IMG/VR virus record: IMGVR_UViG_2541047898_000005
Span: 1 to 17,431 of that record
Direction: 5' to 3' (one strand)
Length of the DNA stretch: 17,431 nt
From: a virus
Lineage: Duplodnaviria > Heunggongvirae > Uroviricota > Caudoviricetes
The position numbers were made by a program, and so were the translations under genes. The notes beneath the pieces were generated by a model. That model saw nothing but the letters and a program-made list of their open reading frames with translations, was not told the DNA's origin and ran no database searches. Shown here piece after piece: positions 1 to 17,278 of the stretch; the stretch's first letter is position 1; each line of letters starts with the position of its first letter.

Positions 1-1344
1 CTGGTGCTGATGCCGTCGGCAGACTATGCACGCCAGATTTGTGGTGCGGGAAGTCAGCTGGCGCGTATGGTCGAGGCTTATCGCCAGACTGACCCGTTTG
101 GCGAGCTGTATGTGATTGCCGTTCCGGAAGCCACAGGCGCGGCGGCAACGGTTACGCTGACGGTGACCGGGGAAGCAACCGAAAGCGGCACGGTGAATGT
201 CTATGTGGGACGTACCCGCGTGCAGGCTCCGGTGACCAACGGCGATAACGTCACGACGATTGCCAGCAGTATCCAGGATGCCATCAATGCCGTTCCGACT
301 CTGCCGTTTACAGCTTCATCTTCGGCTGGTGTTGTCACGCTGACCGCGCGTCATAAGGGGCTTTGCGGGAATGAAATTCCTGTCAGCCTCAATTACTACG
401 GCTTCGGTGGGGGTGAAGTGCTGCCAGCGGGCGTACAGATTGCCGTGGCGACGGGGACCGCCGGAACGGGCGCTCCGGTTCTCACCGGCGCGGTGGCTGC
501 AATGGCGGATGAGCCGTTTGATTATATCGGTCTGCCGTTCAACGACACGGCCTCCGTTAACACGCTGGTGACCGAGATGAACGATACCAGCGGTCGCTGG
601 AGCTATGCGCGTCAGCTGTATGGTCATGTGTATACGGCAAAGACCGGCACACTGTCAGAACTGGTGAACGCAGGTGACCAGTTTAACCAGCAGCACATCA
701 CCCTGGCGGGGTACGAAAAAGAGACCCAGACGCCTGCCGACGAGCTGGCGGCAAGCCGTACCGCCCGCGCAGCGGTGTTTATCCGCAACGATCCGGCACG
801 TCCCACGCAGACCGGTGAGCTGGTGGGTATGCTGCCTGCGCCGAAGGGGAAACGGTTCACGATGACCGAGCAGCAGACCCTGCTGTCTCATGGCGTGGCA
901 ACGGCGTATGTCGAAAGCGGGGGGCTGCGCATTCAGCGTGATGTCACCACGTACAGGAAAAATGCTTACGGGGTTGCGGATAACAGCTACCTCGACAGCG
1001 AGACGCTGCATACCAGTGCGTATGTACTGCGCAAACTGAAATCCGTCATTACCAGTAAGTACGGGCGTCACAAGCTTGCCAGCGACGGTACCCGCTTTGG
1101 TCCCGGTCAGGCGATTGTCACCCCGGCGGTAATCAAAGGGGAACTGCTGGCAACCTACCGTCAGCTTGAGCGTGCGGGGATCGTAGAAAACTACGAACTG
1201 TTTAAGCAGTACCTGGTTGTTGAGCGTGATGCCAGCGATCCGAACCGCCTGAACACGCTGTTCCCGCCTGACTATGTTAACCAGTTGCGTGTTTTTGCCG
1301 TGGTTAACCAGTTCCGTCTTCAGTATTCAGAGGAGTCTGCATAA
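1..1344 (+). CDS. Contractile tail sheath protein (Mu gpL-like), 5'-truncated by the window edge
   Basis: Frame is open from nt 1 and ends at TAA 1342-1344. It is followed directly by a 118-aa tube-like gene, a frameshifted chaperone and a tape-measure gene, which is the canonical myovirus order. No homology search run. Confidence 0.6.
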   Translation: MVLMPSADYARQICGAGSQLARMVEAYRQTDPFGELYVIAVPEATGAAATVTLTVTGEATESGTVNVYVGRTRVQAPVTNGDNVTTIASSIQDAINAVPTLPFTASSSAGVVTLTARHKGLCGNEIPVSLNYYGFGGGEVLPAGVQIAVATGTAGTGAPVLTGAVAAMADEPFDYIGLPFNDTASVNTLVTEMNDTSGRWSYARQLYGHVYTAKTGTLSELVNAGDQFNQQHITLAGYEKETQTPADELAASRTARAAVFIRNDPARPTQTGELVGMLPAPKGKRFTMTEQQTLLSHGVATAYVESGGLRIQRDVTTYRKNAYGVADNSYLDSETLHTSAYVLRKLKSVITSKYGRHKLASDGTRFGPGQAIVTPAVIKGELLATYRQLERAGIVENYELFKQYLVVERDASDPNRLNTLFPPDYVNQLRVFAVVNQFRLQYSEESA

Positions 1345-1700
1345 TGGCCCGTATCGGGGGAACCTGTTATTTCAAAATTGACGGTCAGCAGCTATCGCTG
1401 ACCGGCGGCATTGAGGTGCCCATGAACAGGACGGTCAATGATGACATCATCGGCCTGGACGGCTCAGTGGACCGCAAGGAAACTCACCGTGCGCCTTATG
1501 TCAAAGGGACCTTCAAGGTGCCGAAGAATTTTCCGGTGAGCAAAATCACCTCGTCTGATGAGATGACCATCACTGCCGAGCTGGCGAACGGTCAGGTCTA
1601 TGTATTGTCGTCCGCCTGGCTGCACGGAGAAGCGAACCATAATGCCGAAGAAGGCACGGTTGATCTTGAGTTCCACGGTGAAGAAGGGGATTACCAGTAA
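1344..1700 (+). CDS. Tail tube protein (Mu gpM-like)
   Basis: 118-aa ORF with ATG overlapping the upstream stop (TAATG) and a GAGGAG Shine-Dalgarno; sits between the sheath and chaperone genes. Confidence 0.6.
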   Translation: MARIGGTCYFKIDGQQLSLTGGIEVPMNRTVNDDIIGLDGSVDRKETHRAPYVKGTFKVPKNFPVSKITSSDEMTITAELANGQVYVLSSAWLHGEANHNAEEGTVDLEFHGEEGDYQ

Positions 1701-1969
1701 TGAAAGAGCTTGAGTTAAAGAAACCGATTATCGCTCATGGTGAGACACTCTCCGTACTGGAGTTTGATGAACCCACCGGGAAGGATGTCCGCGAGCTGGG
1801 GTATCCCTACCAGATGAATCAGGATGAGTCCGTCAGACTTCTGGCGCATGTGGTGTCGAAATACATTGTGCGGCTGGCGAAAGTGCCGCAAAGCTCTGTC
1901 GACCAGATGTCTCCGGCAGACCTGAATGCAGCGGCGTGGCTTGTGGCTGGTTTTTTCCTCCAGGCCTGA
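1700..1969 (+). CDS. Tail assembly chaperone (lambda G-like short product)
   Basis: 89-aa ORF, TAATG overlap with the tube gene, immediately upstream of the tape-measure gene; contains the slippery heptamer T_TTT_TTC at 1951-1957. Confidence 0.6.
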   Translation: MKELELKKPIIAHGETLSVLEFDEPTGKDVRELGYPYQMNQDESVRLLAHVVSKYIVRLAKVPQSSVDQMSPADLNAAAWLVAGFFLQA

Positions 1970-2118
1970 CGGCTGAATACCTCACTGATCGCTTCTTTGA
2001 CTGCGCCAGCTACTGGCGCATTAATCCCTTCGAATTGCTGAATATGCCGATCAGTGAAATTCCCTTGCTGGTCAGTCAGGCAAACAGGATAGAGCAGGAG
2101 AAACGCACACATGGCTGA
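1700..2118 (+). CDS. Tail assembly chaperone frameshift fusion (lambda GT-like), made by -1 slippage at 1951-1957
   Basis: ORF 1936-2118 is in the -1 frame relative to 1700-1969 and overlaps it across the X_XXY_YYZ heptamer T_TTT_TTC. The fused reading would be ...LVAGFF then PPGLTAEY... The extension ends 7 nt into the tape-measure gene. Confidence 0.5.
1951..1957 (+). other. Slippery heptamer TTTTTTC for programmed -1 ribosomal frameshift
   Basis: Zero-frame codons GGT TTT TTC; after a -1 slip the next codon is CCT (1957-1959), which continues ORF 1936-2118. Confidence 0.5.
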
Positions 2119-4063
2119 ATTTGAGCTTAAGGCGTTGATCACCGGTGTCGACAGGCTTTCTCCCGCGCTGTCGAAAATGCAAAAGAAAATCCGGGGATTT
2201 AAACGCCAGGCGGAAGAAGCGTCACAGGGTGGGCTGGCGCTTGGTGGCGGACTGGCAGCGGGGCTGACGCTTTCCCTGAAATCTTATGCCGATCAGGAAA
2301 ACGCCGCTACCGGGCTGAAAGTCGCCATGATGGATGCGAACGGCGAGGTTGGAAAGAGCTTTCAGGACATCAATAAACTGGCTATTGGCCTGGGTAACCA
2401 GCTACCCGGTACAACGGCTGATTTCCAGAACATGATGCAGATGCTGGTGCGTCAGGGGATCCCGGCAGAAAACATTCTGGGTGGTGTGGGTAAAGCGACA
2501 GCTTATCTTGCGGTACAACTGAAAAAAACACCGGAAGCGGCTGCCGAGTTTGCCGCAAAGATGCAGGATGCTACCGGAACGGCCTCAGAAGACATGATGG
2601 GGCTGTTCGACACAATTCAGAAGGCGTTTTATCTGGGCGTTGACGACACCAACATGCTGTCATTCTTCACTAAAACCAGCTCTGTTCTGAAGATGGTGAA
2701 TAAGGACGGTCTTCAGGCTGCACAGAGTCTTGCCCCCATCAGTGTCATGATGGATCAGATGGGGATGAACGGGGAGTCGGCAGGTAATGCCCTGCGAAAA
2801 GTTATCCAGTCCGGATTAAGCGTTAAGAAAATCAGGGACGTCAATAAAATCATGGCCCGCCAGAAACTCGGAGTACAGCTCGATTTTACTGATGGCAAAG
2901 GGAGTTTTGGTGGTCTTGATAACATGTTCAGGCAACTGGCAAAGCTGCGAAAACTGACCGACGTTAAGCGAACCGGTGTACTTAAGGCAATATTTGGTGA
3001 TGATGCCGAAACCCTTCAGGTGGTCAATGCGCTGATCGATAAAGGAAAGGATGGCTACGATCAGATCCAGCAGAAGATGAATAAACAGGCCAGCCTGAAT
3101 AAACGTGTTCAGGCTCAGCTTGGTACGCTGTCCAACCTGTGGGAGGCAATGACGGGGACCGCAACTAACGGCCTTGCGGCTATTGGCGGCGCATTTTCTG
3201 GTGACGCTAAGAACATCACGCAGTGGCTGGGGGAGTTGGGGGAGAAATTCACGAAGTTTGCGGATGAAAATCCCCGGGTTATTCGCGGCGTCGTCGGGCT
3301 TGCTGCCGGTCTTGCGATTCTGAAACTGGGATTGATGGGCGTGGGCAGTGCCATCAGCATTGTCAGCAGGATCATGTCGATGACGCCGATTGGCATGATT
3401 GCGACGGCGATAGCCCTGGCTGCGGGATTAATTATCACCAACTGGGATGTTGTCGGACCTTATTTCAAGAAGCTCTGGGAAACCATTAGTCCTTATTTTG
3501 AGGCTGGCTGGGAACTCCTTAAGAAAGTTTTTGCCTGGTCGCCGCTGGGGATGGTGATCAATAACTGGGGGCCGGTTGTTAAGTGGTTTCAGGATATGTG
3601 GGACAAGCTGAAGCCAATTATTGAGTGGTTTACCGACAGTTCCGGTGACACGGTCGATGCCATTAACTCTGCGCAGTGGGGCGCGGGTGCTTATGATGCT
3701 TATGGGACGGGAATACCGCCACGGGGATACACTCCTTATCCGGCGCAGTCAAACAACGCCTCCGGTGACACGGTCGATGCCATTAACTCGGCGCAGTGGG
3801 GCGCGGGTGCTTATGATGCTTATGGGACGGGAATACCGGCGCGGGGATACACACCTTATCCGGCGGTAGATCCGGCTCAGTCAAACAACGCCTCCGATGC
3901 CACAGGCTCGAATCCCTTCATGATTAATAAAGCTACCGCGCCAAAAGTTGATGGTGAGATCAAGGTATCATTTATAAATATGCCACCAGGTATGCGGGTT
4001 ACGGAAACACGCTCCAGTGGCATTGATATAAATCACGATGTTGGCTATACCCGATTTTGGTAG
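2111..4063 (+). CDS. Tail tape measure protein
   Basis: 650-aa ORF directly after the frameshifted chaperone pair; Ala/Gly-rich helical N-terminal part, hydrophobic central stretch (GVVGLAAGLAILKLGLMGVGSAISIV...), CAGGAG Shine-Dalgarno before the ATG. Confidence 0.8.
   Translation: MAEFELKALITGVDRLSPALSKMQKKIRGFKRQAEEASQGGLALGGGLAAGLTLSLKSYADQENAATGLKVAMMDANGEVGKSFQDINKLAIGLGNQLPGTTADFQNMMQMLVRQGIPAENILGGVGKATAYLAVQLKKTPEAAAEFAAKMQDATGTASEDMMGLFDTIQKAFYLGVDDTNMLSFFTKTSSVLKMVNKDGLQAAQSLAPISVMMDQMGMNGESAGNALRKVIQSGLSVKKIRDVNKIMARQKLGVQLDFTDGKGSFGGLDNMFRQLAKLRKLTDVKRTGVLKAIFGDDAETLQVVNALIDKGKDGYDQIQQKMNKQASLNKRVQAQLGTLSNLWEAMTGTATNGLAAIGGAFSGDAKNITQWLGELGEKFTKFADENPRVIRGVVGLAAGLAILKLGLMGVGSAISIVSRIMSMTPIGMIATAIALAAGLIITNWDVVGPYFKKLWETISPYFEAGWELLKKVFAWSPLGMVINNWGPVVKWFQDMWDKLKPIIEWFTDSSGDTVDAINSAQWGAGAYDAYGTGIPPRGYTPYPAQSNNASGDTVDAINSAQWGAGAYDAYGTGIPARGYTPYPAVDPAQSNNASDATGSNPFMINKATAPKVDGEIKVSFINMPPGMRVTETRSSGIDINHDVGYTRFW
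3641..3892 (+). repeat. In-frame tandem duplication inside the tape-measure gene (unit 1 = 120 bp at 3641-3760; unit 2 = 132 bp at 3761-3892 with a 12-bp insertion)
   Basis: Near-identical DNA copies encode SGDTVDAINSAQWGAGAYDAYGTGIP(P/A)RGYTPYPA...QSNNA twice; read directly from the sequence. Confidence 0.9.
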
Positions 4064-4091
4064 CCAGGATTCCCCTCACATGTATTGCTGG

Positions 4092-4119
4092 TTGTAAGTC
4101 ATAAATAGAGTGATAGAAT
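4092..4119 (+). promoter_or_regulatory. Putative sigma70 promoter for the moron gene (-35 TTGTAA 4092-4097, 16-nt spacer, -10 TAGAAT 4114-4119)
   Basis: Hexamer match and spacing, about 35 nt upstream of the ATG at 4155; no experimental support. Confidence 0.3.
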
Positions 4120-4154
4120 TAATGCACATTTAGAAAAATGTTAATAGGCGAAAA

Positions 4155-4685
4155 ATGAAAGGCTATATCACAGCAAGTGTAATTCTTGGAGCAGCGGCTA
4201 TTTTTTCATCTCTCATAATCTCTGGCAACATCTCCTTTAAAGATGAACATATTATTCAGTTATCTGGAGGAGCCATAAAACTTGGTGATGTTTATAAAGA
4301 AAATAAATTGATAAGTGCAAAGATTATTTTTCCAGATAATCAGGGCGAACAGATTCTTGTTGTCGACGGCAATCCTGAAAACTTTAAGGAGGATTTTCAG
4401 GAGAAATTAAATAAAGTAATAAAAACTTTAAATGCGTCAAAGAAAAAAGATGAAGAGAAAGTTAGCCTGGATAATTTAAGTGTTATTGAAGAGTCTAAAC
4501 TAGAGCTCGTTTCTGCGGTGCGTTACTCTGCTCAGTATGTTCCTATGTTTACTCTGACGCTGGACAAAAAAGAAATTACCATGCCTAAAAATACGGTAAT
4601 ATTTCCATTTGCCAGCGATGAAACAGCTAAGTATTTAAATGAACAACAGCAAAAGTATAAAGATTCGTTGTTTCTGACTCGCTAA
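4155..4685 (+). CDS. Hypothetical secreted or membrane-anchored protein (moron inserted in the tail module)
   Basis: 176-aa ORF, visibly AT-rich and Lys-rich compared with the flanking tail genes. N-terminal hydrophobic segment (ITASVILGAAAIFSSLIISG) suggests a signal peptide or TM anchor; there is no Cys, so not a lipoprotein. Flanked by its own candidate promoter and a rho-independent terminator. Confidence 0.6.
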   Translation: MKGYITASVILGAAAIFSSLIISGNISFKDEHIIQLSGGAIKLGDVYKENKLISAKIIFPDNQGEQILVVDGNPENFKEDFQEKLNKVIKTLNASKKKDEEKVSLDNLSVIEESKLELVSAVRYSAQYVPMFTLTLDKKEITMPKNTVIFPFASDETAKYLNEQQQKYKDSLFLTR

Positions 4686-4702
4686 TTAATAAAATTCATT
4701 AC

Positions 4703-4736
4703 AAGGCCACCTTCTAATAGGTGGCTTTTTTATTTT
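4703..4736 (+). terminator. Rho-independent terminator after the moron gene
   Basis: Stem GCCACC (4706-4711) pairs with GGTGGC (4720-4725) around an 8-nt loop, followed by TTTTTTATTTT (4726-4736). Confidence 0.6.
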
Positions 4737-4746
4737 CGGAGTGTAT

Positions 4747-6117
4747 ATGACGTGGAAAGACAGGCTTCAGGATGCGTCATTTCGAGGTGTGCCGTTTAAG
4801 GTTGAAGAAGAAAGTGCGGGAACCGGCCGTCGTGTGGAAACACACGAATATCCGAACCGCGACAAACCCTATACCGAAGATCTGGGAAAAGTCACTTTCC
4901 GCCCGTCCATCACGGCTTATGTGGTGGGAGATGACTGCTTTGACCAGCGCGATCGCCTGATTGACGCGCTGAATAAACCCGGTCCCGGCACGCTTGTCCA
5001 TCCGACTTACGGTGAGCTGAAAGTCTGTGTTGACGGGGAAGTTCGGGTCAGCACATCGAAGAGTGAAGGGCGTATTGTCCGCTTTGACCTGAAGTTTGTC
5101 GAAGCGGGAGAACTCTCTTATCCCACTTCAGGTGCGGCGACGGCGCAGACGCTGATGTCATCCTGTTCTGCACTGGATGACTGCATCAGTGACAGCTTCA
5201 GTGGTTTCAGTATCGATGGCGTGGCGGATTTTGTGCAGAACGACGTCGTCGGTAATGCCGGCACAATGCTGGGGTATGTTTCTGATGCGATGAAAGTGGT
5301 GGATTCTGCCGTATCGGATGCCGCCAGGCTGTTGCAGGGGGATATCTCGGTACTTCTGCCGCCGCCATCGTCAGGCAAAAATTTCGTTGAGCAGGTGCAG
5401 AAAATGTGGCGTACCGGGAAACGCCTTTATGGTAACGCCAGCGACCTGGTCACCATGATCAAAACGCTTTCCGGTGTCAGCCTCGGCAGCGATCTGCAAC
5501 CGCGCGGCGTCTGGAAAACGGACAGTAAAACCACCGCCACGGCGACGCAGCAGCGTAACGTGGTTGCCAGCACCCTTCGTGCGACCGCAATCAGCGAAGC
5601 GGCGTATGCCGTCACCCGATTGCCTGCGCCAACAACTTCCGCGGTGATGCAGAATGCCGCAGTGGGGCAGTCAACAACTTCCGCGGTGATGCAGAATGCC
5701 GCAGTGGGGCAGGCAACAACACCCGCGCAGAGCACTGGCTGGCCTTCCGTCACGCATCCGGCACTGAACAATGCTCCGGCGGTGAAAAGCACGGTTGACC
5801 TGCCGACGTGGGAAGAACTGACTGACATTCGCGACACACTGAATACGGCAACTGATAAGGAGTTGTCCCGTACAACCAGTGATGCGCTGTTTCTGGCGCT
5901 GCGCCGGGTGAAAGCAGATCTGAATGCGGATATCAACACGCGCCTTGAACAGTCTGCACGGATCATTCAGCGCACGCCGGATGAGGTTTTACCCGCGCTG
6001 GTGCTGGCGGCGACCTGGTTTGATAACGCGGCGCGTGACGCGGACATTATCCGGCGTAATGCCATTACGCATCCCGGCTTTGTGCCGGTGATCCCTCTGA
6101 AGGTGCCAGTGCAATGA
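4747..6117 (+). CDS. DNA circulation protein (Mu gpN / gp43-like)
   Basis: Position after the tape-measure gene in Mu order; N-terminus MTWKDRLQDASFRGVPF... matches my memory of the Mu N family. ATG at 4747 has a GGAG Shine-Dalgarno; the track's GTG at 4741 is less likely. Confidence 0.65.
   Translation: MTWKDRLQDASFRGVPFKVEEESAGTGRRVETHEYPNRDKPYTEDLGKVTFRPSITAYVVGDDCFDQRDRLIDALNKPGPGTLVHPTYGELKVCVDGEVRVSTSKSEGRIVRFDLKFVEAGELSYPTSGAATAQTLMSSCSALDDCISDSFSGFSIDGVADFVQNDVVGNAGTMLGYVSDAMKVVDSAVSDAARLLQGDISVLLPPPSSGKNFVEQVQKMWRTGKRLYGNASDLVTMIKTLSGVSLGSDLQPRGVWKTDSKTTATATQQRNVVASTLRATAISEAAYAVTRLPAPTTSAVMQNAAVGQSTTSAVMQNAAVGQATTPAQSTGWPSVTHPALNNAPAVKSTVDLPTWEELTDIRDTLNTATDKELSRTTSDALFLALRRVKADLNADINTRLEQSARIIQRTPDEVLPALVLAATWFDNAARDADIIRRNAITHPGFVPVIPLKVPVQ
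5632..5715 (+). repeat. 42-bp in-frame tandem duplication (2 units) inside the DNA-circulation gene
   Basis: acaacttccgcggtgatgcagaatgccgcagtggggcag(t/g)ca twice, encoding TTSAVMQNAAVGQ(S/A) twice. Confidence 0.9.
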
Positions 6118-7193
6118 ACGATAACGTCACGCTACGGGTAAATGGCCGAGAGTGGAATGGCTGGACATCGGTGCGCATCGGTGCCGGTATTGAACGGCTG
6201 GCGCGGGATTTCAGCGTGGAGATCACCCGCCAGTGGCCGGGAGATGAGGGTATCACCACGCTTCAGCCGCGCATTAAAAATGGTTCAAAAGTGGAAGTGC
6301 TGATTGGTGATGAGCTGGTGATCACCGGCTGGGTGGAGTCGACCCCCGTTCGTTACGATGCCCGTTCGGTCAGCACCGGTATTGCCGGACGTAGTCTGAC
6401 TGCTGACCTGATTGACTGTGCAGCCGAACCGACACAGTTTAACGGACGATCGCTGGTACAGATTGCGCAGGCGCTTGCTGCGCCTTTCGGCATTGAGGTG
6501 GTGAACAGCGATGCGCCGTCGGGTGTTATTCCGGATGTCCAGCCTGATCACGGTGAAACGGTGATCGAAGTGATCAACAAAATACTCGGTCAGCAGCAGG
6601 CGCTGGCTTATGACGACCCGCACGGCAGGCTGGTGATTGGTGGTATTGGCTCAACGCGGGCACATACCGCGCTGGTACTTGGGGAAAACATCCTTTCCTG
6701 TGATACGGAGAAGAGTATCCGGGAGCGGTTTTCAGTTTACCAGGTGGCGGGGCAGCGTGCCGGAAACGACGATGATTTCGGTGAGGCCACCACCACCGCG
6801 CTGCGGGCCCGCACAGAGGATGCATTTATTGCCCGTTACCGTCCGATGTATATCAGGCAGACAGGGCAGGCTACGGGGGCAGGCTGTATTGCGCGTGCTG
6901 ACTTTGAAGCCCGACAACGGGCGGCGCGGACGGATGAAACCACCTATGTGGTGCAGGGCTGGCGACAGGGTAACGGTACGCTGTGGCAGCCCAACCAGCG
7001 GGTGATTGTCTTCGATCCGGTCTGTGGTTTCGACAATACCGAACTGCTTGTCTCGGAAGTCACGTTTACTCAGGACCAGAATGGCACCCTGACGGAAATC
7101 CGTGTCGGCCCACCTGATGCTTATCTGCCTGAACCCGAAGCCCCCGGCGCGCGGAAAAAGAAAAAAGCCAGAGTACAGGAGGACCCGTTCTGA
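6114..7193 (+). CDS. Baseplate hub / tail protein (Mu gpP / gp44-like)
   Basis: 359-aa ORF with ATGA overlap to the upstream gene; synteny between the DNA-circulation and spike genes. Confidence 0.55.
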   Translation: MNDNVTLRVNGREWNGWTSVRIGAGIERLARDFSVEITRQWPGDEGITTLQPRIKNGSKVEVLIGDELVITGWVESTPVRYDARSVSTGIAGRSLTADLIDCAAEPTQFNGRSLVQIAQALAAPFGIEVVNSDAPSGVIPDVQPDHGETVIEVINKILGQQQALAYDDPHGRLVIGGIGSTRAHTALVLGENILSCDTEKSIRERFSVYQVAGQRAGNDDDFGEATTTALRARTEDAFIARYRPMYIRQTGQATGAGCIARADFEARQRAARTDETTYVVQGWRQGNGTLWQPNQRVIVFDPVCGFDNTELLVSEVTFTQDQNGTLTEIRVGPPDAYLPEPEAPGARKKKKARVQEDPF

Positions 7194-7741
7194 TGAGGAC
7201 GATTGAAGCCATGCAGCGACAACTTCTCGGCCTGATTGGGCGGGCCGTGGTGAAAAGCATCAGTGCCGCCACGAAATGTCAGACCGTGGATGTGTCCCTG
7301 ATTGCCGGTGAACCCAAAGCCGGGGTTGAACATCTTGAACCCTACGGTTTTACCGCAAGGGCAAACAGCGGTGCGGAAGCGGTGGTGTTGTTTCCGGATG
7401 GCGACCGTTCTCATGCGGTGGTTGTTACGGTGTCGGACCGGCGCTACCGCCTGAAAGGGCTGCAGACGGGTGAGGTGGCTGTCTATGACGATCAGGGGCA
7501 GTCCGTGACGCTGACCCGGGAGGGGATCGTGGTGGACGGTGCAGGGAAAACGATCACGTTTCGCAATGCACCTGAAGCACGTTTTGAAATGGATCTGGAA
7601 GTGACCGGACAGGTGAAAGACCTGTGCGACTCCGGCGGCACCACCATGTCAGCGATGCGGCTTGCCTATAACGGGCATCGTCACAGAGAGAACGGTCAGG
7701 GTAGTAACACCGACAAACCTGATAAAGCGATGGAGGCATGA
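7193..7741 (+). CDS. Baseplate spike / assembly protein V-like (Mu gp45-like)
   Basis: 182-aa ORF with TGATG overlap; position and size fit the gpV-type spike in Mu/P2 baseplate modules. Confidence 0.55.
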   Translation: MRTIEAMQRQLLGLIGRAVVKSISAATKCQTVDVSLIAGEPKAGVEHLEPYGFTARANSGAEAVVLFPDGDRSHAVVVTVSDRRYRLKGLQTGEVAVYDDQGQSVTLTREGIVVDGAGKTITFRNAPEARFEMDLEVTGQVKDLCDSGGTTMSAMRLAYNGHRHRENGQGSNTDKPDKAMEA

Positions 7742-8166
7742 TGGAACTGTGGCTGACGGTGAACGGTAAACGCACCTGCGCCAGCGCACCGCTGGATCCG
7801 CTGACCCGCGCCGTGGTGATTTCCCTGTTCACCTGGCGGCGGGCGGAGCCTGATGACAATGCCGACGTCCCGATGGGATGGTGGGGGGATACCTGGCCTG
7901 CGGTACAGAATGACCGTTACGGCTCCCGACTGTGGCTGCTTCAGCGCAGCAAACTGACCAATCAGCTGGTGCAGACGGTAAGGGGATATATCCGCGAATG
8001 CCTGCAATGGATGACTGATGACGGCGTGGTGTCCCGTATTGATCTGGATATCCGCCGCACCGGGATTAATGAACTGGGTAACAGTATCACTCTCTGGCGT
8101 CGTGACGGACCGGTAATGATTTCTTTTGATGATCTGTGGAGTGCGATAACGCATGGCGGACAGTGA
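7738..8166 (+). CDS. Baseplate wedge protein, gp25/GPW-like (Mu gp46-like)
   Basis: 142-aa ORF, translationally coupled (ATGA overlap), sitting between the spike and the J-like gene. Confidence 0.55.
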   Translation: MMELWLTVNGKRTCASAPLDPLTRAVVISLFTWRRAEPDDNADVPMGWWGDTWPAVQNDRYGSRLWLLQRSKLTNQLVQTVRGYIRECLQWMTDDGVVSRIDLDIRRTGINELGNSITLWRRDGPVMISFDDLWSAITHGGQ

Positions 8167-9211
8167 ATTTCAGCGCCCGACGCTGGCAGAAAATATCAGT
8201 ATGCTCCGTAACGATTTATTCGCCAGGCTGGACGTCAGCGACACGCTCCGGCGCATGGATGAAGACGTGCGGGCAAAGGTGTATGCGGCGGCGCTGCATA
8301 CGGTTTACGGTTACATCGATTATCTGGCAATGAACATGCTGCCTGACCTGTGCGATGAGTCCTGGCTGGCGCGACATGCTGCGATGAAACGGTGTCCGCG
8401 CAAGGGGGCCACGACTGCCAGCGGGTATATGCGCTGGGAAGGTGTCAGCGATGGCCTGAAGGTGACCGCCGGGAGTGTTATTCAGCGCGATGACCTGGTT
8501 CAGTACACGGCAACTTCTGATGCAACCAGCTCAGGTGGAGTCCTGCGCGTGCCGATCGCCTGCTCAACTGCAGGCGCGGTCGGTAACGCTGACGACGGTA
8601 CGGCATTAATCCTGGTCACGCCGGTGAATGGTCTGCCGTCTTCCGGTGTGGCAGATACCCTGACTGGCGGATTCGATACTGAAGATCTGGAAACGTGGCG
8701 CGCCCGCGTCATTGAGCGGTATTACTGGACGCCGCAGGGCGGGGCTGACGGGGACTATGTCGTCTGGGCTAAAGAAGTGCCCGGCATTACCCGCGCATGG
8801 ACATACCGTCACTGGATGGGAACGGGAACTGTCGGTGTGATGATTGCCAGCAGTGACCTGATTAATCCCATTCCGGAAGAATCAACGGAAACGGCGGCAA
8901 GACAACACATTGAGCCACTGGCCCCGGTGGCAGGCTCTGATTTGTATGTGTTCAGGCCGGTGGCGCATACTGTGGATTTTCATATCCGCGTGACGCCGGA
9001 CACACCCGAAATACGGGCTGCCATCACCGCCGAGTTGCGTTCGTTCCTGCTGCGTGATGGTTATCCGCAGGGAGAACTGAAGGTGTCACGTATCAGTGAA
9101 GCGATTTCCGGTGCGAACGGGGAATACAGCCATCAGTTGCTTGCACCGGCAGACAATATCTCCATTGCAAAAAATGAGCTGGCAGTTCTGGGGACGATTT
9201 CATGGACGTGA
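8153..9211 (+). CDS. Baseplate J-like protein (Mu gp47 / P2 gpJ-like)
   Basis: 352-aa ORF in the expected position; overlaps its neighbours in the way coupled baseplate genes do. Confidence 0.6.
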
Positions 9212-9786
9212 CAAACGATGATTACATCCGTCTGTTGTCGGCGCTGCTGCCGCCCGGTCCGGCGTGGTCAGCCAGCGATCCGGCGATTGCCGGTGCGGCA
9301 CCGTCATTAACCCGCGTTCATCAGCGTGCGGATGCCCTGATGCGGGAGCTGGATCCGCGCACCACCACCGAACTGATAAATCGCTGGGAGCGTCTGTGCG
9401 GCCTGCCGGATGAATGTAATCCCGCAGGGACACAGACCCTTCGCCAGCGTCAGCAACGGCTGGATGCGAAGGTTAACCTGGCGGGTGGCATCAACGAGGA
9501 TTTTTATCTTGCACAGCTCGCTGCCCTGGGCAGACCAGATGCCGCCATCACGCGATACGACAAAAGCACGTTCACCTGCTCATCAGCCTGCACTGACGCT
9601 GTGAATGCGCCGGAATGGCGGTATTACTGGCAGGTCAACATGCCAGCCGCCACCAACACCACCTGGATGACATGTGGCGATCCCTGTGATTCCGCACTGC
9701 GTATCTGGGGGGACACCGTTGTCGAGTGTGTGCTTAACAAACTCTGCCCGTCGCATACCTACGTAATTTTTAAATATCCGGAGTAA
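9202..9786 (+). CDS. Tail/baseplate protein, Mu gp48 / P2 gpI-like (YmfQ-like)
   Basis: 194-aa ORF immediately upstream of the tail-fibre gene; same length and position as the e14 ymfQ product as I recall it. Confidence 0.55.
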
Positions 9787-9789
9787 TCC

Positions 9790-10293
9790 ATGCATCGTAT
9801 AGACACGAAAACCGCGCAGAAGGATAAGTTCGGCGCGGGTAAGAACGGTTTTACCCGTGGTAACCCCCAGACCGGCACGCCTGCCACCGATCTGGATGAT
9901 GACTACTTTGACATGTTGCAGGAGGAGCTTTGCAGCGTTGTGGAGGCATCCGGTGCCAGCCTGGAGAAGGGGCGGCACGACCAGTTGCTTACCGCGCTTC
10001 GTGCGCTGCTGTTAAGCCGCAAGAATCCGTTTGGCGATATCAAATCGGATGGCACGGTGAAAACGGCTCTCGAAAACCTTGGTTTGGGAGAAGCGGCTAA
10101 ACGAAATGTGGGAGCACCTGATCATCGGATTCCAGACATATCTGCATCAGGCTCTGGCAAATACAACTGTGAGGTATCTTGTGCTCAAAATGACCCAGAG
10201 TTGTCAAAGGATTTTCCTGGGAAGGAATCAACTGAATCAAGAGGTAATTTTATTATTGGATGTGATGACGGCGCAGGGGTTGATACAGGCTGA
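9790..10293 (+). CDS. Tail fibre protein: constant N-terminal part (9790-10096) fused to the currently expressed variable C-terminal cassette (10097-10293)
   Basis: ORF runs across the left inverted repeat into the invertible segment. The post-repeat C-terminus resembles the minus-strand cassette at the other end (GEAAKR...SGKYN...ESRG(N/K)F). Confidence 0.6.
10079..10096. repeat. Left inverted repeat / putative recombination crossover site of the invertible segment (ttggtttgggagaagcgg)
   Basis: Perfect 18-bp inverted repeat with 11911-11928, lying inside the tail-fibre ORF and next to a Gin/Pin-family invertase gene. Confidence 0.85.
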
Positions 10294-10997
10294 TGTTCAG
10301 TGGGTACTCAAGCCGCAGCGCCGGCCTAGAAACTTATTCCGTTTGTGGCAACCAAGGGATAAGAATCAATAGAAGTATCAGACCGGGCGGCTATGTATAG
10401 AAGAGTAAATATGGAAATAGGAGGATTTTATGCATCAGCAGACTTAGGGCGCCTGGGCCAATCACTGACACGTTATTAATTAAGAAAACACTTTAATACT
10501 GGCTGGAACGAGGCCTGTTGATGCATTAGTTCATCTAGCTGAAATGTGAGTGATATATATGGGAGAACGCCGAATAGGAAAGAGCCCAGATTGCTAGGAA
10601 GATGGTTAACATAACTGGCTATAAATACCTCGGTGATACGAGGGAGAATTTATTTACAAGGACTGATCAGATAGCAATGGGTGTCGGAACTCGACCAAAT
10701 TCCTCTTTAACCGTAAATAGTAGCCCGGTGACTGGGTTAATGATTTGCCGATAGGTGAGGAACAGGCCCTGTATATATTTTGCCTACAATAGCGGTGGGA
10801 ACGTGTGCAGGATGATAATGGCGGGGGCCAAGAAAATGACTGCCCTAGGCGACTGGCCGTAAAGGCCAACTGCCGTCCGCCGGGGAGCTCGTAACTGTAA
10901 CTGGCATCGCGTAAAAGTGATCACGGACAGTGTTAAGTATGATTGTGCCGGAGTAGGTCCGGCTGAGTCCCGGCTGCAGTCACTGTTTAATCCGGCT

Positions 10998-11009
10998 GAG
11001 GGTACCCTC
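10998..11009. repeat. Perfect 12-bp palindrome gagggtaccctc at the exact centre of the invertible segment
   Basis: Symmetry axis falls between 11003 and 11004, which equals (10079+11928)/2. Confidence 0.9.
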
Positions 11010-11644
11010 TGTTTCATCCAACTGAGATTGGAGCTCTGCTTTAAACGCTCCTACGCCGGAACCGTCTTATTTCTCAGTGTCTTGCACCAAATTTACGCCG
11101 TCACAGTAACAGAATCCCGTTAACCGCCGGATAGCGGTTGTACTGAACGGCCAGTGGCGTAGGCCTTTCATTACTTTGCCATCCCGCGGTTTGAAGCTAC
11201 ACACGTGCCTACCGAGATGGTCTCACAAAATTTCATTGCATTTGAACCCCACAGAACAGCCGACTATAAGAGGCGCCATCGGTCTACTGTTAGCGTCTAA
11301 AGAGTTAGATGCCCGGATACCTACATACTCGCCTAGATGATTCGTTGATGTAGATATATATTCCCTCTGATCGTGGACGTATTTATAGACAGGTGGGTAC
11401 CCCGCTTTCCTATTAAACTCGTCTTTTCTCTATACGGCGTTATCCAATATATTGTACAGAAAATACATTTAGATGCACTATTTCATGGGCGGGTCACGCT
11501 CCATTCACTACATCAGATTTTCTCACATTAACGGAGTGAAGGTCATTTGATGAGAGTCACTAAGGAAGTGGATTCATCAAGCCTCCTTCCTTGGGTATAC
11601 GTAGTTCTAAACATACCAGTTCGTGCCGATTCTTCTTTTGTGTC

Positions 11645-11928
11645 TTACGTATCTTTTGTGATAACCGCCTTACGGTGCTTGGCCGGCGCACCGGCTAGTG
11701 TACTCTCTGAAAATCGTCCTCTATCAATAACTGCCCCGGCAGCCAAGGCAAGAGGAAACTTACCGCGAGATTCGTGAGATTTCGCTCTTTGATCATCCTT
11801 CGCAAACTTCGGGTATATATCACCACTAAGTAACTGAAAGTTGTATTTGCCAGATCGAAATGGAGATATAGCTGAAATCTGTTGATCAGGTATTCCAACA
11901 GTTCGTTTTGCCGCTTCTCCCAAACCAA
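11645..11928 (-). CDS. Alternative tail-fibre variable C-terminal cassette (promoterless; would fuse to the constant part after inversion)
   Basis: Minus-strand frame open from the right inverted repeat to a stop at 11645, encoding GEAAKRTVGIPDQQISAISPFRSGKYNF...ESRGKF..., parallel to the plus-strand cassette. Confidence 0.45.
11911..11928. repeat. Right inverted repeat / putative recombination crossover site (reverse complement of 10079-10096)
   Basis: ccgcttctcccaaaccaa is the exact reverse complement of ttggtttgggagaagcgg. Confidence 0.85.
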
Positions 11929-11994
11929 CGTTTATGAAAATGAAGAAATAACAAGCAAATGGCATCATTCCTGCTTTTACCAGGGGGATTTAAC

Positions 11995-12549
11995 ATGCTT
12001 ATTGGCTATGTACGTGTATCAACAAATGACCAGAATACCGATCTACAACGTAATGCGCTGAACTGTGCAGGATGTGAGCTGATTTTTGAAGACAAGATAA
12101 GCGGTACAAAGTCCGACAGACCAGGACTGAAAAAGCTGCTCAGGACATTATCGGCAGGTGACACGCTGGTGGTCTGGAAACTGGACCGACTGGGGCGCAG
12201 TATGCGGCATCTTGTCGTGCTGGTGGAGGAGTTGCGCGAACGAGGCATCAACTTTCGTAGTCTGACGGATTCAATTGATACCAGTACCCCAATGGGGCGC
12301 TTTTTCTTTCATGTGATGGGTGCCCTGGCTGAAATGGAGCGTGAACTGATTGTTGAACGAACAAAAGCTGGACTGGAAGCTGCTCGCGCACAGGGACGAA
12401 TTGGTGGACGTCGCCCCAAACTTACACCAGAACAATGGGAGCAGGCCGGACGATTAATTGCAGCAGGAATTCCTCGCCAGAAGGTAGCGATCATCTATGA
12501 TGTTGGTGTATCGACACTGTATAAGATGTTTCCGGTCGGAGATAAATGA
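11995..12549 (+). CDS. pin: Site-specific DNA invertase, serine recombinase of the Gin/Hin/Pin/Cin family
   Basis: 184-aa product beginning MLIGYVRVSTNDQNTDLQRNAL... with the catalytic Ser in the YVRVST motif, ...VVWKLDRLGRSM..., and a C-terminal HTH-like region (GIPRQKVAIIYDVGVSTLYK). It matches the Gin/PinE sequences I remember closely. GGGGGA Shine-Dalgarno 6 nt upstream. The track's upstream Met (11959) is probably not the start. Confidence 0.9.
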   Translation: MLIGYVRVSTNDQNTDLQRNALNCAGCELIFEDKISGTKSDRPGLKKLLRTLSAGDTLVVWKLDRLGRSMRHLVVLVEELRERGINFRSLTDSIDTSTPMGRFFFHVMGALAEMERELIVERTKAGLEAARAQGRIGGRRPKLTPEQWEQAGRLIAAGIPRQKVAIIYDVGVSTLYKMFPVGDK

Positions 12550-12881: not shown

Positions 12882-14180
12882 ATGAAAGCTCGTTTAATAC
12901 CACCGTACGAAAACTACACTGGCAATGTTTTATGGCGAAAAGAGGATTTTATTAATAAAGTCGACGATATCTCAACATCTCTAAAAAAGTTAAGAGATAT
13001 GGGATATTGGGCCAGTGCCTATCCTGAAGGAGATGGCATTACATTTAAATATACCAAGGATAGTTATCAAAAAAGCAGTATCGAAATTCTAGAAGACTTC
13101 TCAATATGCTTTGAGTGGGTAGAAATAGAGTTAGCTAAATCAAGAAGCTCTAACCTAGAATTAGCTGAATTAGAGGGTAAAAACAAAAATATGGAGTGCA
13201 TAGTTATTGTGCCGATTGAGAAGATTTTCATTCAGGAAACCATCGAGATCGGAAAGTATATTTTTTATTGCGGAAGACAATTTGATGAAGAGTCACATAA
13301 GCGATTATCAGAGCAAGATGGTTCGTATATACAGTTTAACTGTGACCTACCATATATTGATTTATTAAAACTTAATTCAAGCATTGATCATAACAGCCAT
13401 GTTATAAACATGTGTTTATCTATAGCTGAATATGCGCTTGATTTAGTCAGATTTTCTCACAGCTCATTTACACGTATGGAATATACCCCTAATCCTGCAG
13501 GTCAACGCTCTGACGGATTTTATGATGTAGAAATCATTCCTCGTGAGAGGACTCATCTTAAACCAATTAAGATAAGTGGAATATCAAGACCCCTTGCTGT
13601 GAGTAATAATTGGCTAGGCCCTCAGGTTGACAGCTTGTATTACCCTGGGTTGCAATATTTATCTTCTATCTACGATGGAGTCGTTGAAAATGAACTTTCA
13701 AAATTAGTTAGCTCCGTAGTTAGGGCATGTAGGCAATCTTTTTATTCAATTGGCGCGGAATCACAATTTCTAAACCTAGTCTTTGCACTTGATGGTCTTG
13801 CTAATATTGACCCAAATTGGAAAGGATGGAAGCAAAGGACCTACATTGCAGCACTTACATGTAATAACTCACTAATCAAATTTAAGAAAAACCTAGAAGT
13901 TTATGACGAGTTATATACTGACGTAAGAAACAAGCTTGTTCATGATGGTAAAGATTTTTACGAACTTAACGTCAACGCGAACGAATCCTCTGAACAAATC
14001 TTTAAGTATATTAAGATAATTATAATACTCATCGAAAGTAACGGCTTTTCCACTTTGCAAGAATTGAGAGATTATGCAGTTCACCTACTTCAGCAGGAGG
14101 ATTATAGAACTGCTTCTGTTGAGATAATTGACAAAGTATCTCTTTTAAGAGGAAAAAAACCTAATTATCCTTCATGGTGA
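12882..14180 (+). CDS. Hypothetical cargo protein with a C-terminal HEPN-like R-x4-H motif (candidate abortive-infection RNase)
   Basis: 432-aa AT-rich ORF with a strong Shine-Dalgarno. Motif DVRNKLVHDG fits the HEPN R-[NQ]-x3-H signature, about 90 residues from the C-terminus in a predicted helical region. Family assignment is inference. Confidence 0.45.
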   Translation: MKARLIPPYENYTGNVLWRKEDFINKVDDISTSLKKLRDMGYWASAYPEGDGITFKYTKDSYQKSSIEILEDFSICFEWVEIELAKSRSSNLELAELEGKNKNMECIVIVPIEKIFIQETIEIGKYIFYCGRQFDEESHKRLSEQDGSYIQFNCDLPYIDLLKLNSSIDHNSHVINMCLSIAEYALDLVRFSHSSFTRMEYTPNPAGQRSDGFYDVEIIPRERTHLKPIKISGISRPLAVSNNWLGPQVDSLYYPGLQYLSSIYDGVVENELSKLVSSVVRACRQSFYSIGAESQFLNLVFALDGLANIDPNWKGWKQRTYIAALTCNNSLIKFKKNLEVYDELYTDVRNKLVHDGKDFYELNVNANESSEQIFKYIKIIIILIESNGFSTLQELRDYAVHLLQQEDYRTASVEIIDKVSLLRGKKPNYPSW

Positions 14181-14256
14181 TTAAATCAACGTGCTAATTA
14201 ATTTTTAATATAACTTCTGCTCCTCGCTCTCAGCGGACCTTCAGCTCAGTGATATC

Positions 14257-14281
14257 GTCCGCTCTGTGTCAGGAGCGGACG
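14257..14281. repeat. Junction motif copy B, forming a hairpin (stem GTCCGCTC/GAGCGGAC, loop tgtgtcag) between convergent cargo genes
   Basis: 8-bp perfect stem read from the sequence; no U-tract, so not a canonical intrinsic terminator. Left half matches copy C, right half matches copy A. Confidence 0.5.
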
Positions 14282-14373
14282 TTACTGACATCACAATGTG
14301 TTAATCAATGGAGAGCAGGTCACCATAATGTCATGGGTATCGCTGGTGATATGATCGCAATACACGACAATTA

Positions 14374-15063
14374 TTATTTAATTATTTTAAAAAGTTCATT
14401 GTAGCTACAACCTTTGAATATTTCGAACTGATCATGGTAATTTGAATAAGCGCTTGCCATCATTCCGATATAACTATCCCATGATGACTCAGAAACTACC
14501 ATTTCACCACGCTCTAATTCATCAATTAAAATATAAATGATATTAAATTGTGCAACAAGAGCAGTGTAGGTGGTGATGAGATTATTTAGAAGGTCTGAAT
14601 GATTAGGTTTGATTTTCCACAAACCAAAACTATCCCGAATTGCAACTAATTCGAATCGTAAATCTTTTGACTCAGAAAGTAACTCCCTCCCACTTGTAGT
14701 GAGATGCTTGTAGAGTATGGGGTTCTCACTTTTTATTCTTGGCTGTATAGAAATAAGTGATTGATAACATTGATGATTTAAGTCCTTTGATCGAAACATG
14801 CTGTCGATGAACAATGTAGTTCTCTCGAAAGCCTTTTCTGATTTTTTGTTTTTAATCCATTCATTTACCCTTGTTAATGCATAAATCGCTAGTCCAAGTG
14901 TTATTGTTGAAACTGTTGCAGTAATTGTTGATGGTTCAATTTTTTTAAAAAACCAGATATCAATCCATGCAAAAGAGACTGAGCCGAGATACATAAACAA
15001 CATGTGACTCGCGAAGTATTCCCAAACACCTTTTAAATAGCTTTTCATGTAGATCCTTAACAT
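14374..15063 (-). CDS. Hypothetical membrane protein (two N-terminal TM helices plus a ~150-aa cytoplasmic domain); real start probably the internal Met at 15048
   Basis: AT-rich ORF. Hydrophobic segments MLFMYLGSVSFAWIDIWFF and ITATVSTITLGLAIYAL. The ATG whose reverse complement is at 15046-15048 has an AAGGA Shine-Dalgarno 5 nt upstream, whereas the first ATG has none. Confidence 0.5.
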   Translation of the reverse strand: MLRIYMKSYLKGVWEYFASHMLFMYLGSVSFAWIDIWFFKKIEPSTITATVSTITLGLAIYALTRVNEWIKNKKSEKAFERTTLFIDSMFRSKDLNHQCYQSLISIQPRIKSENPILYKHLTTSGRELLSESKDLRFELVAIRDSFGLWKIKPNHSDLLNNLITTYTALVAQFNIIYILIDELERGEMVVSESSWDSYIGMMASAYSNYHDQFEIFKGCSYNELFKIIK

Positions 15064-15217
15064 TTTCTTAATTATATTTTATGGTGGTATTTTTGTTAGT
15101 ATCGGTATGGATTAGAAATAGTTGATACTTTTATGCCCTGAGAGCATGAAAACTGGAAAAGCCTTGCTCATGATATAAATAGTGTTAGTTGCCACTGCTT
15201 TGGAAGTTATCCTTTAA

Positions 15218-15412
15218 ATGGGCTATCGGAAAGCCAGACTTCTAGCAGATGCTGAATCCGTGATTTTGCCGCTGGAGCGCGCTGTCAGGCTGAATATGGC
15301 AACAGATGAGGAGCGCAGTCGACTGGAGGCATGGGAACGCTACAGCGTTCTGGTCAGTCGTGTGGATCCTGCAAATCCTGAATGGCCGGAAATGCCGCAA
15401 GAAGTTGTATGA
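15218..15412 (+). CDS. Hypothetical small protein (64 aa; Glu/Arg-rich, predicted helical)
   Basis: ORF with normal (non-AT-rich) composition inside the 640-bp spacer between two cargo genes; no recognisable motif. May be a gene fragment. Confidence 0.25.
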
Positions 15413-15438
15413 GCTCTGGTGTGAGCTTACATATCTAT

Positions 15439-15478
15439 GGCACAGAGTAAAGCCTAATCTGACAGTCCGCTCTGTGCC
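15439..15478. repeat. Junction motif copy C within a 9-bp-stem hairpin (ggcacagag ... ctctgtgcc, 22-nt loop)
   Basis: Contains gtccgctctgtgcc, which shares 12 contiguous nt with copy B; lies between the membrane-protein gene and the RES-like gene. Confidence 0.5.
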
Positions 15479-15702
15479 GAAGCTAGCAAAGCCATGGTCC
15501 TTTCGCAGCAAGTTGCGTAAATAAGGCGTTTTTATCTCTTGAAGCATTCTACAAAGCCAACTCCTCGCTCAAACAGACGTGTCTGTTCAGCAATCTGCCC
15601 GCTTGGTATCAAGGGACGCCAGTAACGCGATACCGGGTGAATTCCTTCCTTAACTGCCCTCACATCATCTTTAATAATAGTTTACCCTGATATAACGGAT
15701 GA

Positions 15703-17082
15703 TCAGAAGTCAATCAGGTCATCGAATTTCTGAGGTGGCTCTTGTTTTCGAACGCTATCTCCCTGATGAATCTCCGTCTCACTTGTTTGGTATTTTACAC
15801 CAGTAATTTTATGATAAGTCATACTGTTGGTTTTCAACAGTAGTGCATCATTTTTGTCATGCGAGGATGAAAATGAACCCATATGTCTCGGTTTTATTTG
15901 TTCCTCAACTATCAACTGAATTTCCGGAACAAAAGCATACTGGTCATCTTCGATGTGTTCATACATCTCAACATTATATCGGCGAGATTTATCTGCGGCA
16001 TGCCTGACGCCGGAAGACTTATTAAACAGAACGACATTATATCCTGTCTCAGCATCCTCACCGTTGGCATCTACCTGGGTAGATTTAAAGCTGACACCAT
16101 CAAGCTTAAATTTATTTCGGTCACCTAGGTAATCGGCAACCACTTGGGTGATGAGGTAATCACTGTCCTGCCTTTTTCCAAAAGTAGGAAGCGTCAACTT
16201 ACGGGAAAGCGTACTGAAAAAAATCGCGCGCTCACTGGTTTTGCGAGTCTGAGGATCAAATTTACTACCTGAGCCGAAACTAATCGAGTCAAGGGCAGAA
16301 ATGTCCAGCACTTTTAGCTCGCGTAACGGTACAAAACAGGCCGTTACTACAATACTGCCGACGGGCGGCCTTACTTCAGCAATTGCCAAATTCACTGAGG
16401 TTGCACCGTAAAATACTGAAATCCCCTGTGCGTTCATACGGCCCGAGCGAGCCAAAGTTGTTGGGGGAGGTCCAAAATTTTTCTCGGGATGCTCCAAGGC
16501 TTGCTTTACTTCCTCTTGGTCCTCAAAAACCCTTGCACGAAAAAGATGAACCTCATCAGTCAGAGTTTTTATCGGTGAATTACTGTCTCTGTTTTTTAGT
16601 TTATCGATATCACTGAAAAGTGAATCTAGGAAATCATTAACTTCACGGTTAAAATATCGTGTTTCTTTCATAAGGGAGTCAGTGGCTTTACTCCAGGTAT
16701 GCGCAAGCTCTCCGCTATAGTGATTTATGTGCCGATAAAGAAACCCGTCATTATACCGGATGTAGTCATAATCGTTATGCGGATTATATTCATCACAAAG
16801 AAATTCATAAATATCTTCAGCTACGTCCCATTCGACGCCCAGTTCTCCGTAGATGACATCCTGCGCGCTATCACCGCGCCCGGAATCATAGATATCCTCA
16901 TATATATCATAGTAGTACTCAAAAACCTCATTCATCATCTTGAGAATATATTTGAGGTGGATGTTTTTACGCTTCCTTTTGCAGTAAGAGCAAATCTGAA
17001 AATTATTTCCAGTTTTTATTATATGCTGCATGACATATTTATCGTTCACGCATTTATGACAAATATACTTATCTTCCCACAT
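15703..17082 (-). CDS. RES-domain-like protein with an N-terminal Cys4 zinc-ribbon-like motif (candidate NAD+-targeting effector)
   Basis: 459-aa AT-rich ORF. N-terminus has CHKC...CSYC. Central segment LFRARV...(~25 aa)...ARSGRMNAQGISVFYGATSVNLAIAEV...(later) VSFKS...YNVVLF fits my memory of the RES (Arg-Glu-Ser) core, G-R-x-N...G...Y.A......A..E. No HMM search run. Confidence 0.55.
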   Translation of the reverse strand: MWEDKYICHKCVNDKYVMQHIIKTGNNFQICSYCKRKRKNIHLKYILKMMNEVFEYYYDIYEDIYDSGRGDSAQDVIYGELGVEWDVAEDIYEFLCDEYNPHNDYDYIRYNDGFLYRHINHYSGELAHTWSKATDSLMKETRYFNREVNDFLDSLFSDIDKLKNRDSNSPIKTLTDEVHLFRARVFEDQEEVKQALEHPEKNFGPPPTTLARSGRMNAQGISVFYGATSVNLAIAEVRPPVGSIVVTACFVPLRELKVLDISALDSISFGSGSKFDPQTRKTSERAIFFSTLSRKLTLPTFGKRQDSDYLITQVVADYLGDRNKFKLDGVSFKSTQVDANGEDAETGYNVVLFNKSSGVRHAADKSRRYNVEMYEHIEDDQYAFVPEIQLIVEEQIKPRHMGSFSSSHDKNDALLLKTNSMTYHKITGVKYQTSETEIHQGDSVRKQEPPQKFDDLIDF

Positions 17083-17278
17083 TTTTTACTCACTCATCAT
17101 CAGCTGATACAAGGTCACTTTCCTGCAATTTTATAATTAAATCAAGCATAAAAACCCTCTTCACACCTTAATGCTTTCAGTGTGAAAATAATTAGTGGTG
17201 CACTGTACTGATAATAATTACGAACTTCCGCTTCTCGCTCATAACAGACATTCACTACAGTTATGGTAGAAGGTATGT

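Follow-up and report, generated by a model that had tools for sequence, protein, structure and literature searches.

A rare, mobile membrane-protein gene of enterobacterial prophages as a candidate phage-exclusion determinant

What does a short gene for a predicted membrane protein do among the cargo at the end of an Escherichia coli prophage, and does it do so alone or with the genes beside it? The window, by which we mean the whole stretch of 17,431 nucleotides that was analysed, comprises the right end and the late-gene half of an E. coli prophage whose contractile tail is Mu-like. Genes for sheath, tube, tape measure and baseplate lead up to an invertible segment of tail-fibre genes with its Pin-type invertase, and the prophage end adjoins the remnant of a LysR gene and paoD. 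Past the invertase, the GC content drops from about 55% to 34-40%, and three cargo genes lie 3' of it: one for a 432-aa protein, the target of this analysis, and one for a 459-aa protein with a RES domain, with the remnant of a tail fibre assembly gene between the latter two (Table 1). The original prediction, made from the sequence alone, described the target as AT-rich and as convergent with the 432-aa gene across a junction hairpin. Both descriptions hold, as the gene has a GC content of 33.5% (GC3 31.7%) vs 54.8% for positions 1-10000 of the window, and the hairpin is present where the two genes meet. In the invertible region (10300-12549), parts of tail fibre and assembly genes lie inverted on the two strands, with the invertase at 11959-12549 adjoining them, and the matching RefSeq sequence differs from the window in arrangement between about 10093 and 11898. 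A 176-aa open reading frame (4155-4685, plus strand), annotated as hypothetical in RefSeq, occupies an AT-rich patch (GC 0.34) that separates the tape measure and DNA circularization genes, and it looks like another accessory insertion within the tail operon.

The target is a real coding gene under purifying selection in both of its halves. The longest open reading frame (14374..15063, minus strand) would encode 229 aa, and residue numbering here follows it. The true start is taken to be the second ATG, at 15048, because the RefSeq protein (WP_042005101.1, 224 aa) and the relatives begin at MKSYLKG, and the first ATG is not conserved (it is ACG in the Citrobacter and Klebsiella copies) while the second is. 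A TAAGGA sequence containing the ribosome-binding site is conserved, as is the -10 element of the promoter-like site in the Citrobacter and Klebsiella copies, and the promoter resembles a constitutive one more than a late one. For the first 85 codons pairwise dN/dS is 0.03-0.08, and for the remainder 0.2-0.33, values which indicate that the protein is expressed and under selection. Those of the second part denote relaxed or fast evolution and fall short of demonstrated positive selection. The hairpin 3' of the gene has no T-run. Its GCGGAC/GTCCGC arm occurs three times within 14211-14290 (14232-38, 14257-63 and 14273-80), which gives rise to overlapping alternative hairpins at the junction of the convergent genes.

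Table 1. Coordinates of the target gene, its parts and signals, and the neighbouring cargo genes in the window
Feature	Position	Strand	Comment
432-aa hypothetical protein	12882..14180	+	stop at 14180
GC-rich hairpin	14253..14284		12-nt arms TATCGTCCGCTC / GAGCGGACGTTA, 8-nt loop; 3' of target
Mobile cassette	14257..15225		969 bp; left edge inside hairpin
Target CDS	14374..15048	-	224 aa + stop, from conserved second ATG
Variable rest of bundle	14377..14793	-	aa 91-229; pLDDT ~75-95
Membrane-adjacent helix	14794..14871	-	aa 65-90, RVNEWIKNKKSEKAFERTTLF; conserved V66, W69, K73, K77, F79
Membrane helix 2 (predicted)	14872..14928	-	aa 46-64; Ser/Thr/Ala-rich (TITATVSTITLGLAIYAL)
Membrane helix 1 (predicted)	14947..15021	-	aa 15-39; family-invariant G27, common S19-H20, D35
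Ribosome-binding site AAGGA	15054..15058	-	5 nt to ATG at 15048; TAAGGA conserved
Sigma-70 promoter-like site CTAACA-17 nt-TATAAT	15099..15071	-	10/12 matches
459-aa RES-domain protein	15703..17082	-	Pfam RES E 3.2e-14

The product is predicted to be a small inner-membrane protein in which two N-terminal membrane helices are followed by about 160 aa of soluble helical domain. The two transmembrane helices of the original prediction are borne out by segments at about aa 15-39 and 44-64 that are hydrophobic in all 31 relatives compared, with mean Kyte-Doolittle maxima of 2.04 and 1.76, respectively. In the target allele the corresponding values are 1.53 and 1.46, and its membrane helices are marginally hydrophobic and Ser/Thr-rich. 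The loop preceding helix 2 is short (KKIEPS). Across the 31 relatives, the number of Lys and Arg residues averages 2.7 in the N-terminal tail, 0.8 in the loop and 5.4 in the 20 residues past helix 2, and this charge bias predicts that both ends of the protein are cytoplasmic, with a periplasmic loop of about 5 residues. The helix at aa 65-90 is likewise predicted to be cytoplasmic because it is rich in Lys and Arg. A third membrane helix at aa 158-184 was considered and rejected, as the hydrophobicity of this stretch is specific to the allele (family mean Kyte-Doolittle 0.54) and it forms a core helix within the modelled bundle.

An AlphaFold2 model built from an 11-sequence alignment has a mean pLDDT of 74, with low confidence in the membrane part (about 50) and values mostly of 75-95 for residues 70-229. 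In this model, helix 2 appears continuous with the first helix of an up-down four-helix bundle. Foldseek returned nothing from the PDB at E<=0.001, and the single match in BFVD was an uncharacterised 196-aa gut Myoviridae protein (E 9.6e-5, TM 0.67/0.77). On these results the bundle fold is considered generic, and no function is assigned from it. The likeness to the bundles of chemoreceptors and sensor kinases (Tar, Tsr, PcaY and TorS) is one of four-helix up-down fold class only, since de novo designed bundles score as high against the target as the chemoreceptor sensor domains do. Those bundles sit in the periplasm, with a membrane helix on either side, and feed into HAMP or kinase modules, whereas the bundle of the target is C-terminal, predicted to be cytoplasmic and followed by no output domain, and the target has no match to Pfam 4HB_MCP. 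The family has no conserved polar cluster that would suggest an enzyme, and none of the conserved residues in the bundle looks catalytic.

The soluble domain had been described as free of recognisable motifs, and this description stands, as the target has no match at E<=1 in Pfam, NCBIfam, PHROGs or PADLOC, the defence profiles of PADLOC-DB 2.0.0 among them. Searches of the family libraries with the 31 relatives gave scattered weak matches, each from one or two members, and the single PADLOC match stronger than E 0.003 was to LeoA. A profile search of PDB sequences produced coiled-coil and designed-bundle noise alone. Searches of 50,697 phage records and of a plasmid collection with tblastn gave no match, and a literature search by accession gave no result. 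A word-indexed search of 5.8 billion proteins found 12 relatives, while a profile search run exhaustively over 1.84 billion representatives yielded only 36 at E<=0.001, almost all of them 214-266 aa long and aligning end to end. A second profile search found 34, all unnamed proteins without a Pfam domain. Those relatives that carry an organism name are from Pantoea, Enterobacter, Klebsiella and Citrobacter, all Enterobacterales. In species-representative genomes (185,579 species), scanned with two N-terminal peptide motifs of the close alignment only, none of the 100 pattern matches encodes a relative, and a locus search with the close alignment found only four near-identical viral contigs. 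The family is thus tiny, at about 36 clusters, and undescribed in every library searched.

Conservation within the family is distributed very unevenly along the protein. Only G27 and W69 are invariant across the family, with V66, K73, F79, W149 and F225 nearly so. The peak of conservation falls on helix 2, which is nearly invariant among the close and the 45%-identical relatives, and on the Lys-rich helix that follows it (consensus KVxxWLxxKxNEKAF), the latter being the most conserved part of the family. The rest of the bundle is as variable as the N-terminal tail, its family-wide conservation being limited to W149 and F225. When the E. coli allele is compared with the P1-type alleles, the first 85 residues are 86% identical and the remainder about 20%. 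The same pattern is displayed by tandem paralogues in Pantoea, at 59% vs 22% identity. These paralogues (8001-8801 and 8842-9567 of locus L009) lie in a Pantoea agglomerans prophage with a T7-like RNA polymerase gene, and they are near-identical in helix 2 and the adjacent helix, with bundles that are 22% identical. Comparison of the E. coli and P1-type alleles gave a dS of about 1.0 for the N-terminal part, with saturation in the C-terminal part, which is only suggestive of a mosaic origin of the two halves, as differing constraint is another explanation.

The original prediction placed the target among cargo genes, and this is supported. It is present in 8 of 5,426 complete E. coli genomes, and identity to its other E. 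coli contexts starts at 14257, on the middle one of the three repeated arms. A 98.9%-identical copy of the 969-bp cassette stands by itself in an unrelated island of E. coli, which lacks both neighbour genes and contains DUF932, patatin, RdcB, dynamin-family, DUF3800 and IS66 genes. The DUF3800 gene of this island is the PADLOC candidate PDC-M04A. A larger block of 2,993 bp (14257-17249), made up of the target, the tail-fibre-assembly remnant and the RES gene, is found at 99.4-99.5% identity in P2-like prophages (L016, 6884-9876; L018 and L020, 5815-8807), between the tail fibre assembly and sheath genes. This insertion site we take to be the Z/fun position on the P2 map. The Z/fun locus, together with a hotspot within the tail genes, is one of the defence and accessory hotspots of P2 (PMC13586616). 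The 3' end of the tail fibre assembly gene is duplicated and flanks the target on both sides, and this duplication is suggestive of separate recombination events, anchored in the assembly gene, by which the target and RES cassettes came to be stacked. With its own promoter-like site and hairpin, its deviant GC content and a 969-bp unit found alone elsewhere, the target is a phage moron, that is, an independent accessory cassette of temperate phages. Like described morons, it forms a transcription unit of its own, deviates in composition, lies between conserved phage genes and varies in its presence among phages that are otherwise near-identical, the term denoting a genetic arrangement and not a function (PMC3594210).

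Outside E. coli, the same family is found in several further kinds of element. Relatives at 84-89% identity occur in Citrobacter, at a prophage end with an icd remnant; in Enterobacter, directly 3' of the O/P replication genes of a lambdoid prophage; and in Klebsiella, in an island adjoining smpB. In the Klebsiella island, the relative lies between Septu PtuA/PtuB (E 7.5e-172 and 2.2e-78) and a Mokosh-like MkoC helicase, and downstream of Shango SngB/SngC. Relatives at 45% identity are found in P1-like elements after a lone umuC-like (IMS family) gene, at a site whose flanks we read, from the P1 map, as presumably pmgA-like and sit-like genes. One or two small unknown genes follow the relative at these loci (L002 and L003, 8677-11154). 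In Pantoea and Enterobacter, distant relatives with 18-25% identity are located at the extremities of prophages, where two conserved genes of the same orientation (67 and 144 aa) precede the relative (L011, L012 and L013, 7278-8675), and this subfamily may form a three-gene unit at the prophage end. The P2 hotspot, the prophage ends and the Septu/Mokosh-like island are locations typical of exclusion and defence genes, and as to setting the original prediction is supported. Not every copy is intact. In the Klebsiella pneumoniae copy (L006, 8001-8678), a T-run in the helix 1 coding sequence has lost 1 bp, and the frameshift replaces the N-terminus of the annotated protein; this copy is likely to be a pseudogene or a sequencing error. 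One further family copy (P0013) is truncated or frameshifted.

How might such a protein serve its prophage? The best explanation, held tentatively, is that the target is expressed from the prophage and excludes phages as a stand-alone single gene. An anti-phage function at the membrane by any mechanism, to which both location and anatomy point, comes close to an even chance while falling a little below it. The nearly invariant hairpin and its adjoining helix would be the working part, acting either by self-association into a leak or pore, which would amount to abortive infection, or by occupation of a conserved site in the inner membrane. The pattern of small residues and Ser/Thr in helix 2 would fit such helix-helix packing. 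Specificity would come from the fast-diverging bundle, through the sensing or binding of a phage product. Because almost nothing of the protein is predicted to face the periplasm, a leak leading to abortive infection is somewhat favoured over an entry block of the kind attributed to SieA, discussed below. In its most specific form, the proposal would have a latent pore or leak hairpin that is restrained and triggered by a rapidly diversifying bundle recognising phage proteins, together constituting a new single-protein anti-phage system. Alleles and tandem paralogues would then differ in the phages they act on, and P2-like, P1-like, lambdoid and Mu-like-tail phages would exchange the cassette between their hotspots. 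Stated in such detail, the proposal is unlikely.

Some support for an anti-phage reading comes from work on comparable loci. Among P4 satellites that carry only genes of unknown function at the main defence locus, 6 of 8 randomly chosen ones protected against phages (PMC13586616), and transmembrane proteins in known anti-phage systems are generally regarded as effectors of cell suicide (PMC9122126). The location of the target in hotspots is circumstantial evidence for defence, however. The target has no homology to a validated defence or exclusion protein, and the sole copy inside a certified defence island, that of Klebsiella, is frameshifted. Among the closest parallels are small membrane effectors of abortive-infection systems, namely the two-helix SLATT/DUF4231 effectors and Csx28, which also combine a short membrane anchor or hairpin with an all-helical cytoplasmic domain free of enzymatic motifs, and whose expected action is the oligomerisation and membrane leak proposed here for the target. 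Csx28, of type VI-B CRISPR systems, is a small, anchored helical protein that forms a pore (bioRxiv 10.1101/2021.11.02.466367). Unlike the SLATT/DUF4231 proteins, the target has no match to Pfam SLATT_1-6 or DUF4231 at E<=1, and DUF4231 is matched by 2 of the 31 relatives, at best with E 0.13. A further difference is that the target has no signal-generating partner such as a cyclase or Cas13, standing alone with its own promoter-like site, and among the called neighbours in the loci read there is no SMODS/CD-NTase, SLOG or TIR gene.

Alternatively, the target may be an accessory gene with no anti-phage role, serving instead in envelope stress, transport, immunity to colicins or toxins, or fitness in the gut, or simply persisting as a selfish or neutral passenger. 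This is the strongest of the competing readings, less likely than exclusion yet well worth considering. The absence of defence homology is consistent with it, as are the rarity of the gene (in E. coli and in the motif-based scan of species representatives alike) and the broken copies. P2 hotspots themselves hold non-defence cargo, including partition genes and toxins (PMC9122126). Against this reading, both halves of the protein are under purifying selection, and the cassette has been captured time and again: temperate phages of at least five unrelated types carry it in their hotspots, and so does one defence island. The combination of conserved hairpin, diversifying bundle and tandem paralogues is also typical of conflict systems.

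Another possibility is superinfection exclusion without cell death, in which the hairpin would block entry of the incoming genome, as P22 SieA and T4 Imm do, by binding either ejection proteins or a component of the host inner membrane through which the DNA passes. The reading is anti-phage, like the best explanation with which it overlaps, and the difference is one of mechanism; exclusion of this kind appears rather doubtful. In its favour, the target is a prophage-encoded, predicted inner-membrane protein with its own promoter-like site, located near tail fibre genes or prophage ends, and the extreme conservation of helix 2 and the adjoining helix would fit binding to a host partner that is itself conserved. 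SieA, too, is small, located in the inner membrane and expressed from a prophage as an independent accessory gene, and it is sufficient alone (PMC10883804). The resemblance ends there, as SieA has three predicted membrane helices in 162-164 aa and no large soluble domain (PMC10883804), against two helices and a large bundle in the target. The SieA motif FxRYPxEAxxFNK (PMC10883804) is absent from the target, and the tblastn search of the 50,697 phage records found no similarity to SieA or to any other phage sequence. With a variable domain predicted to be cytoplasmic and a predicted periplasmic loop of about 5 residues, the protein would expose little of itself to ejection proteins.

The idea that the target is the partner of neighbouring defence proteins, also raised in the original prediction, fared less well. 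Here the target would be the membrane effector or anchor of a multi-gene system with the 432-aa protein, the RES protein or both. Neither neighbour is without interest: the 432-aa protein has no match in any family library searched and an RNKLVH (Rx4H, HEPN-like) motif close to its C-terminus, while the 459-aa protein has a sub-threshold N-terminal match to HEPN_RES_NTD1 in Pfam and no PADLOC match. The RES protein is a stand-alone defence candidate in its own right and probably acts on NAD+. The three AT-rich genes are adjacent in the window and occur together in 6 E. coli genomes, and the target and RES gene travel jointly in P2-like prophages. They do not form an operon, however, since the target and the 432-aa gene are convergent and the assembly remnant separates the target from RES. 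In the 5,426 E. coli genomes the target occurs 8 times, the 432-aa gene 7 times and the RES gene 12 times; 2 genomes have the target but not the 432-aa gene, 1 has the target but not RES, and 5 have RES but not the target. One of the seven copies of the 432-aa gene is truncated and has no target beside it. Relatives in other genera always have different neighbours, and neither neighbour gene lies beside any relative outside E. coli in the loci read. Co-occurrence therefore leads us to reject a partnership with either gene, and a joint system is very improbable.

A holin- or antiholin-like regulator of lysis, with class II (S21-type) topology and an added cytoplasmic domain, is similarly far-fetched, for while the target shares with class II holins two weakly hydrophobic, Ser/Thr-rich helices and a predicted location of both ends in the cytoplasm, such holins are about one-third of its 224 aa and it differs from them in its large bundle of about 160 aa, lies outside the lysis cassettes in the window and in the P2-like, P1-like and lambdoid contexts, has no holin family match in Pfam or PHROGs (nor do the 31 relatives in a Pfam scan) and has a promoter that looks constitutive and not late.

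In kind, the undescribed family to which the target belongs is a familiar one, falling with the prophage membrane morons and the candidate exclusion proteins encoded by single genes. Hotspots of this sort hold many unknown genes, which are often defensive, and the conserved hairpin, variable bundle and clean cassette behaviour make this one a reasonable, not an outstanding, candidate. Should it be inactive against phages, it would be one of many uncharacterised prophage membrane proteins. If it is protective, it would be a very compact membrane defence protein that combines sensor and effector in one chain, and its natural allele series, in which swapped bundles are joined to a conserved hairpin, would be well suited to domain swaps addressing phage recognition. 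The locus is also a clean example of how single defence-candidate cassettes stack in a phage hotspot through recombination at the 3' end of an assembly gene.
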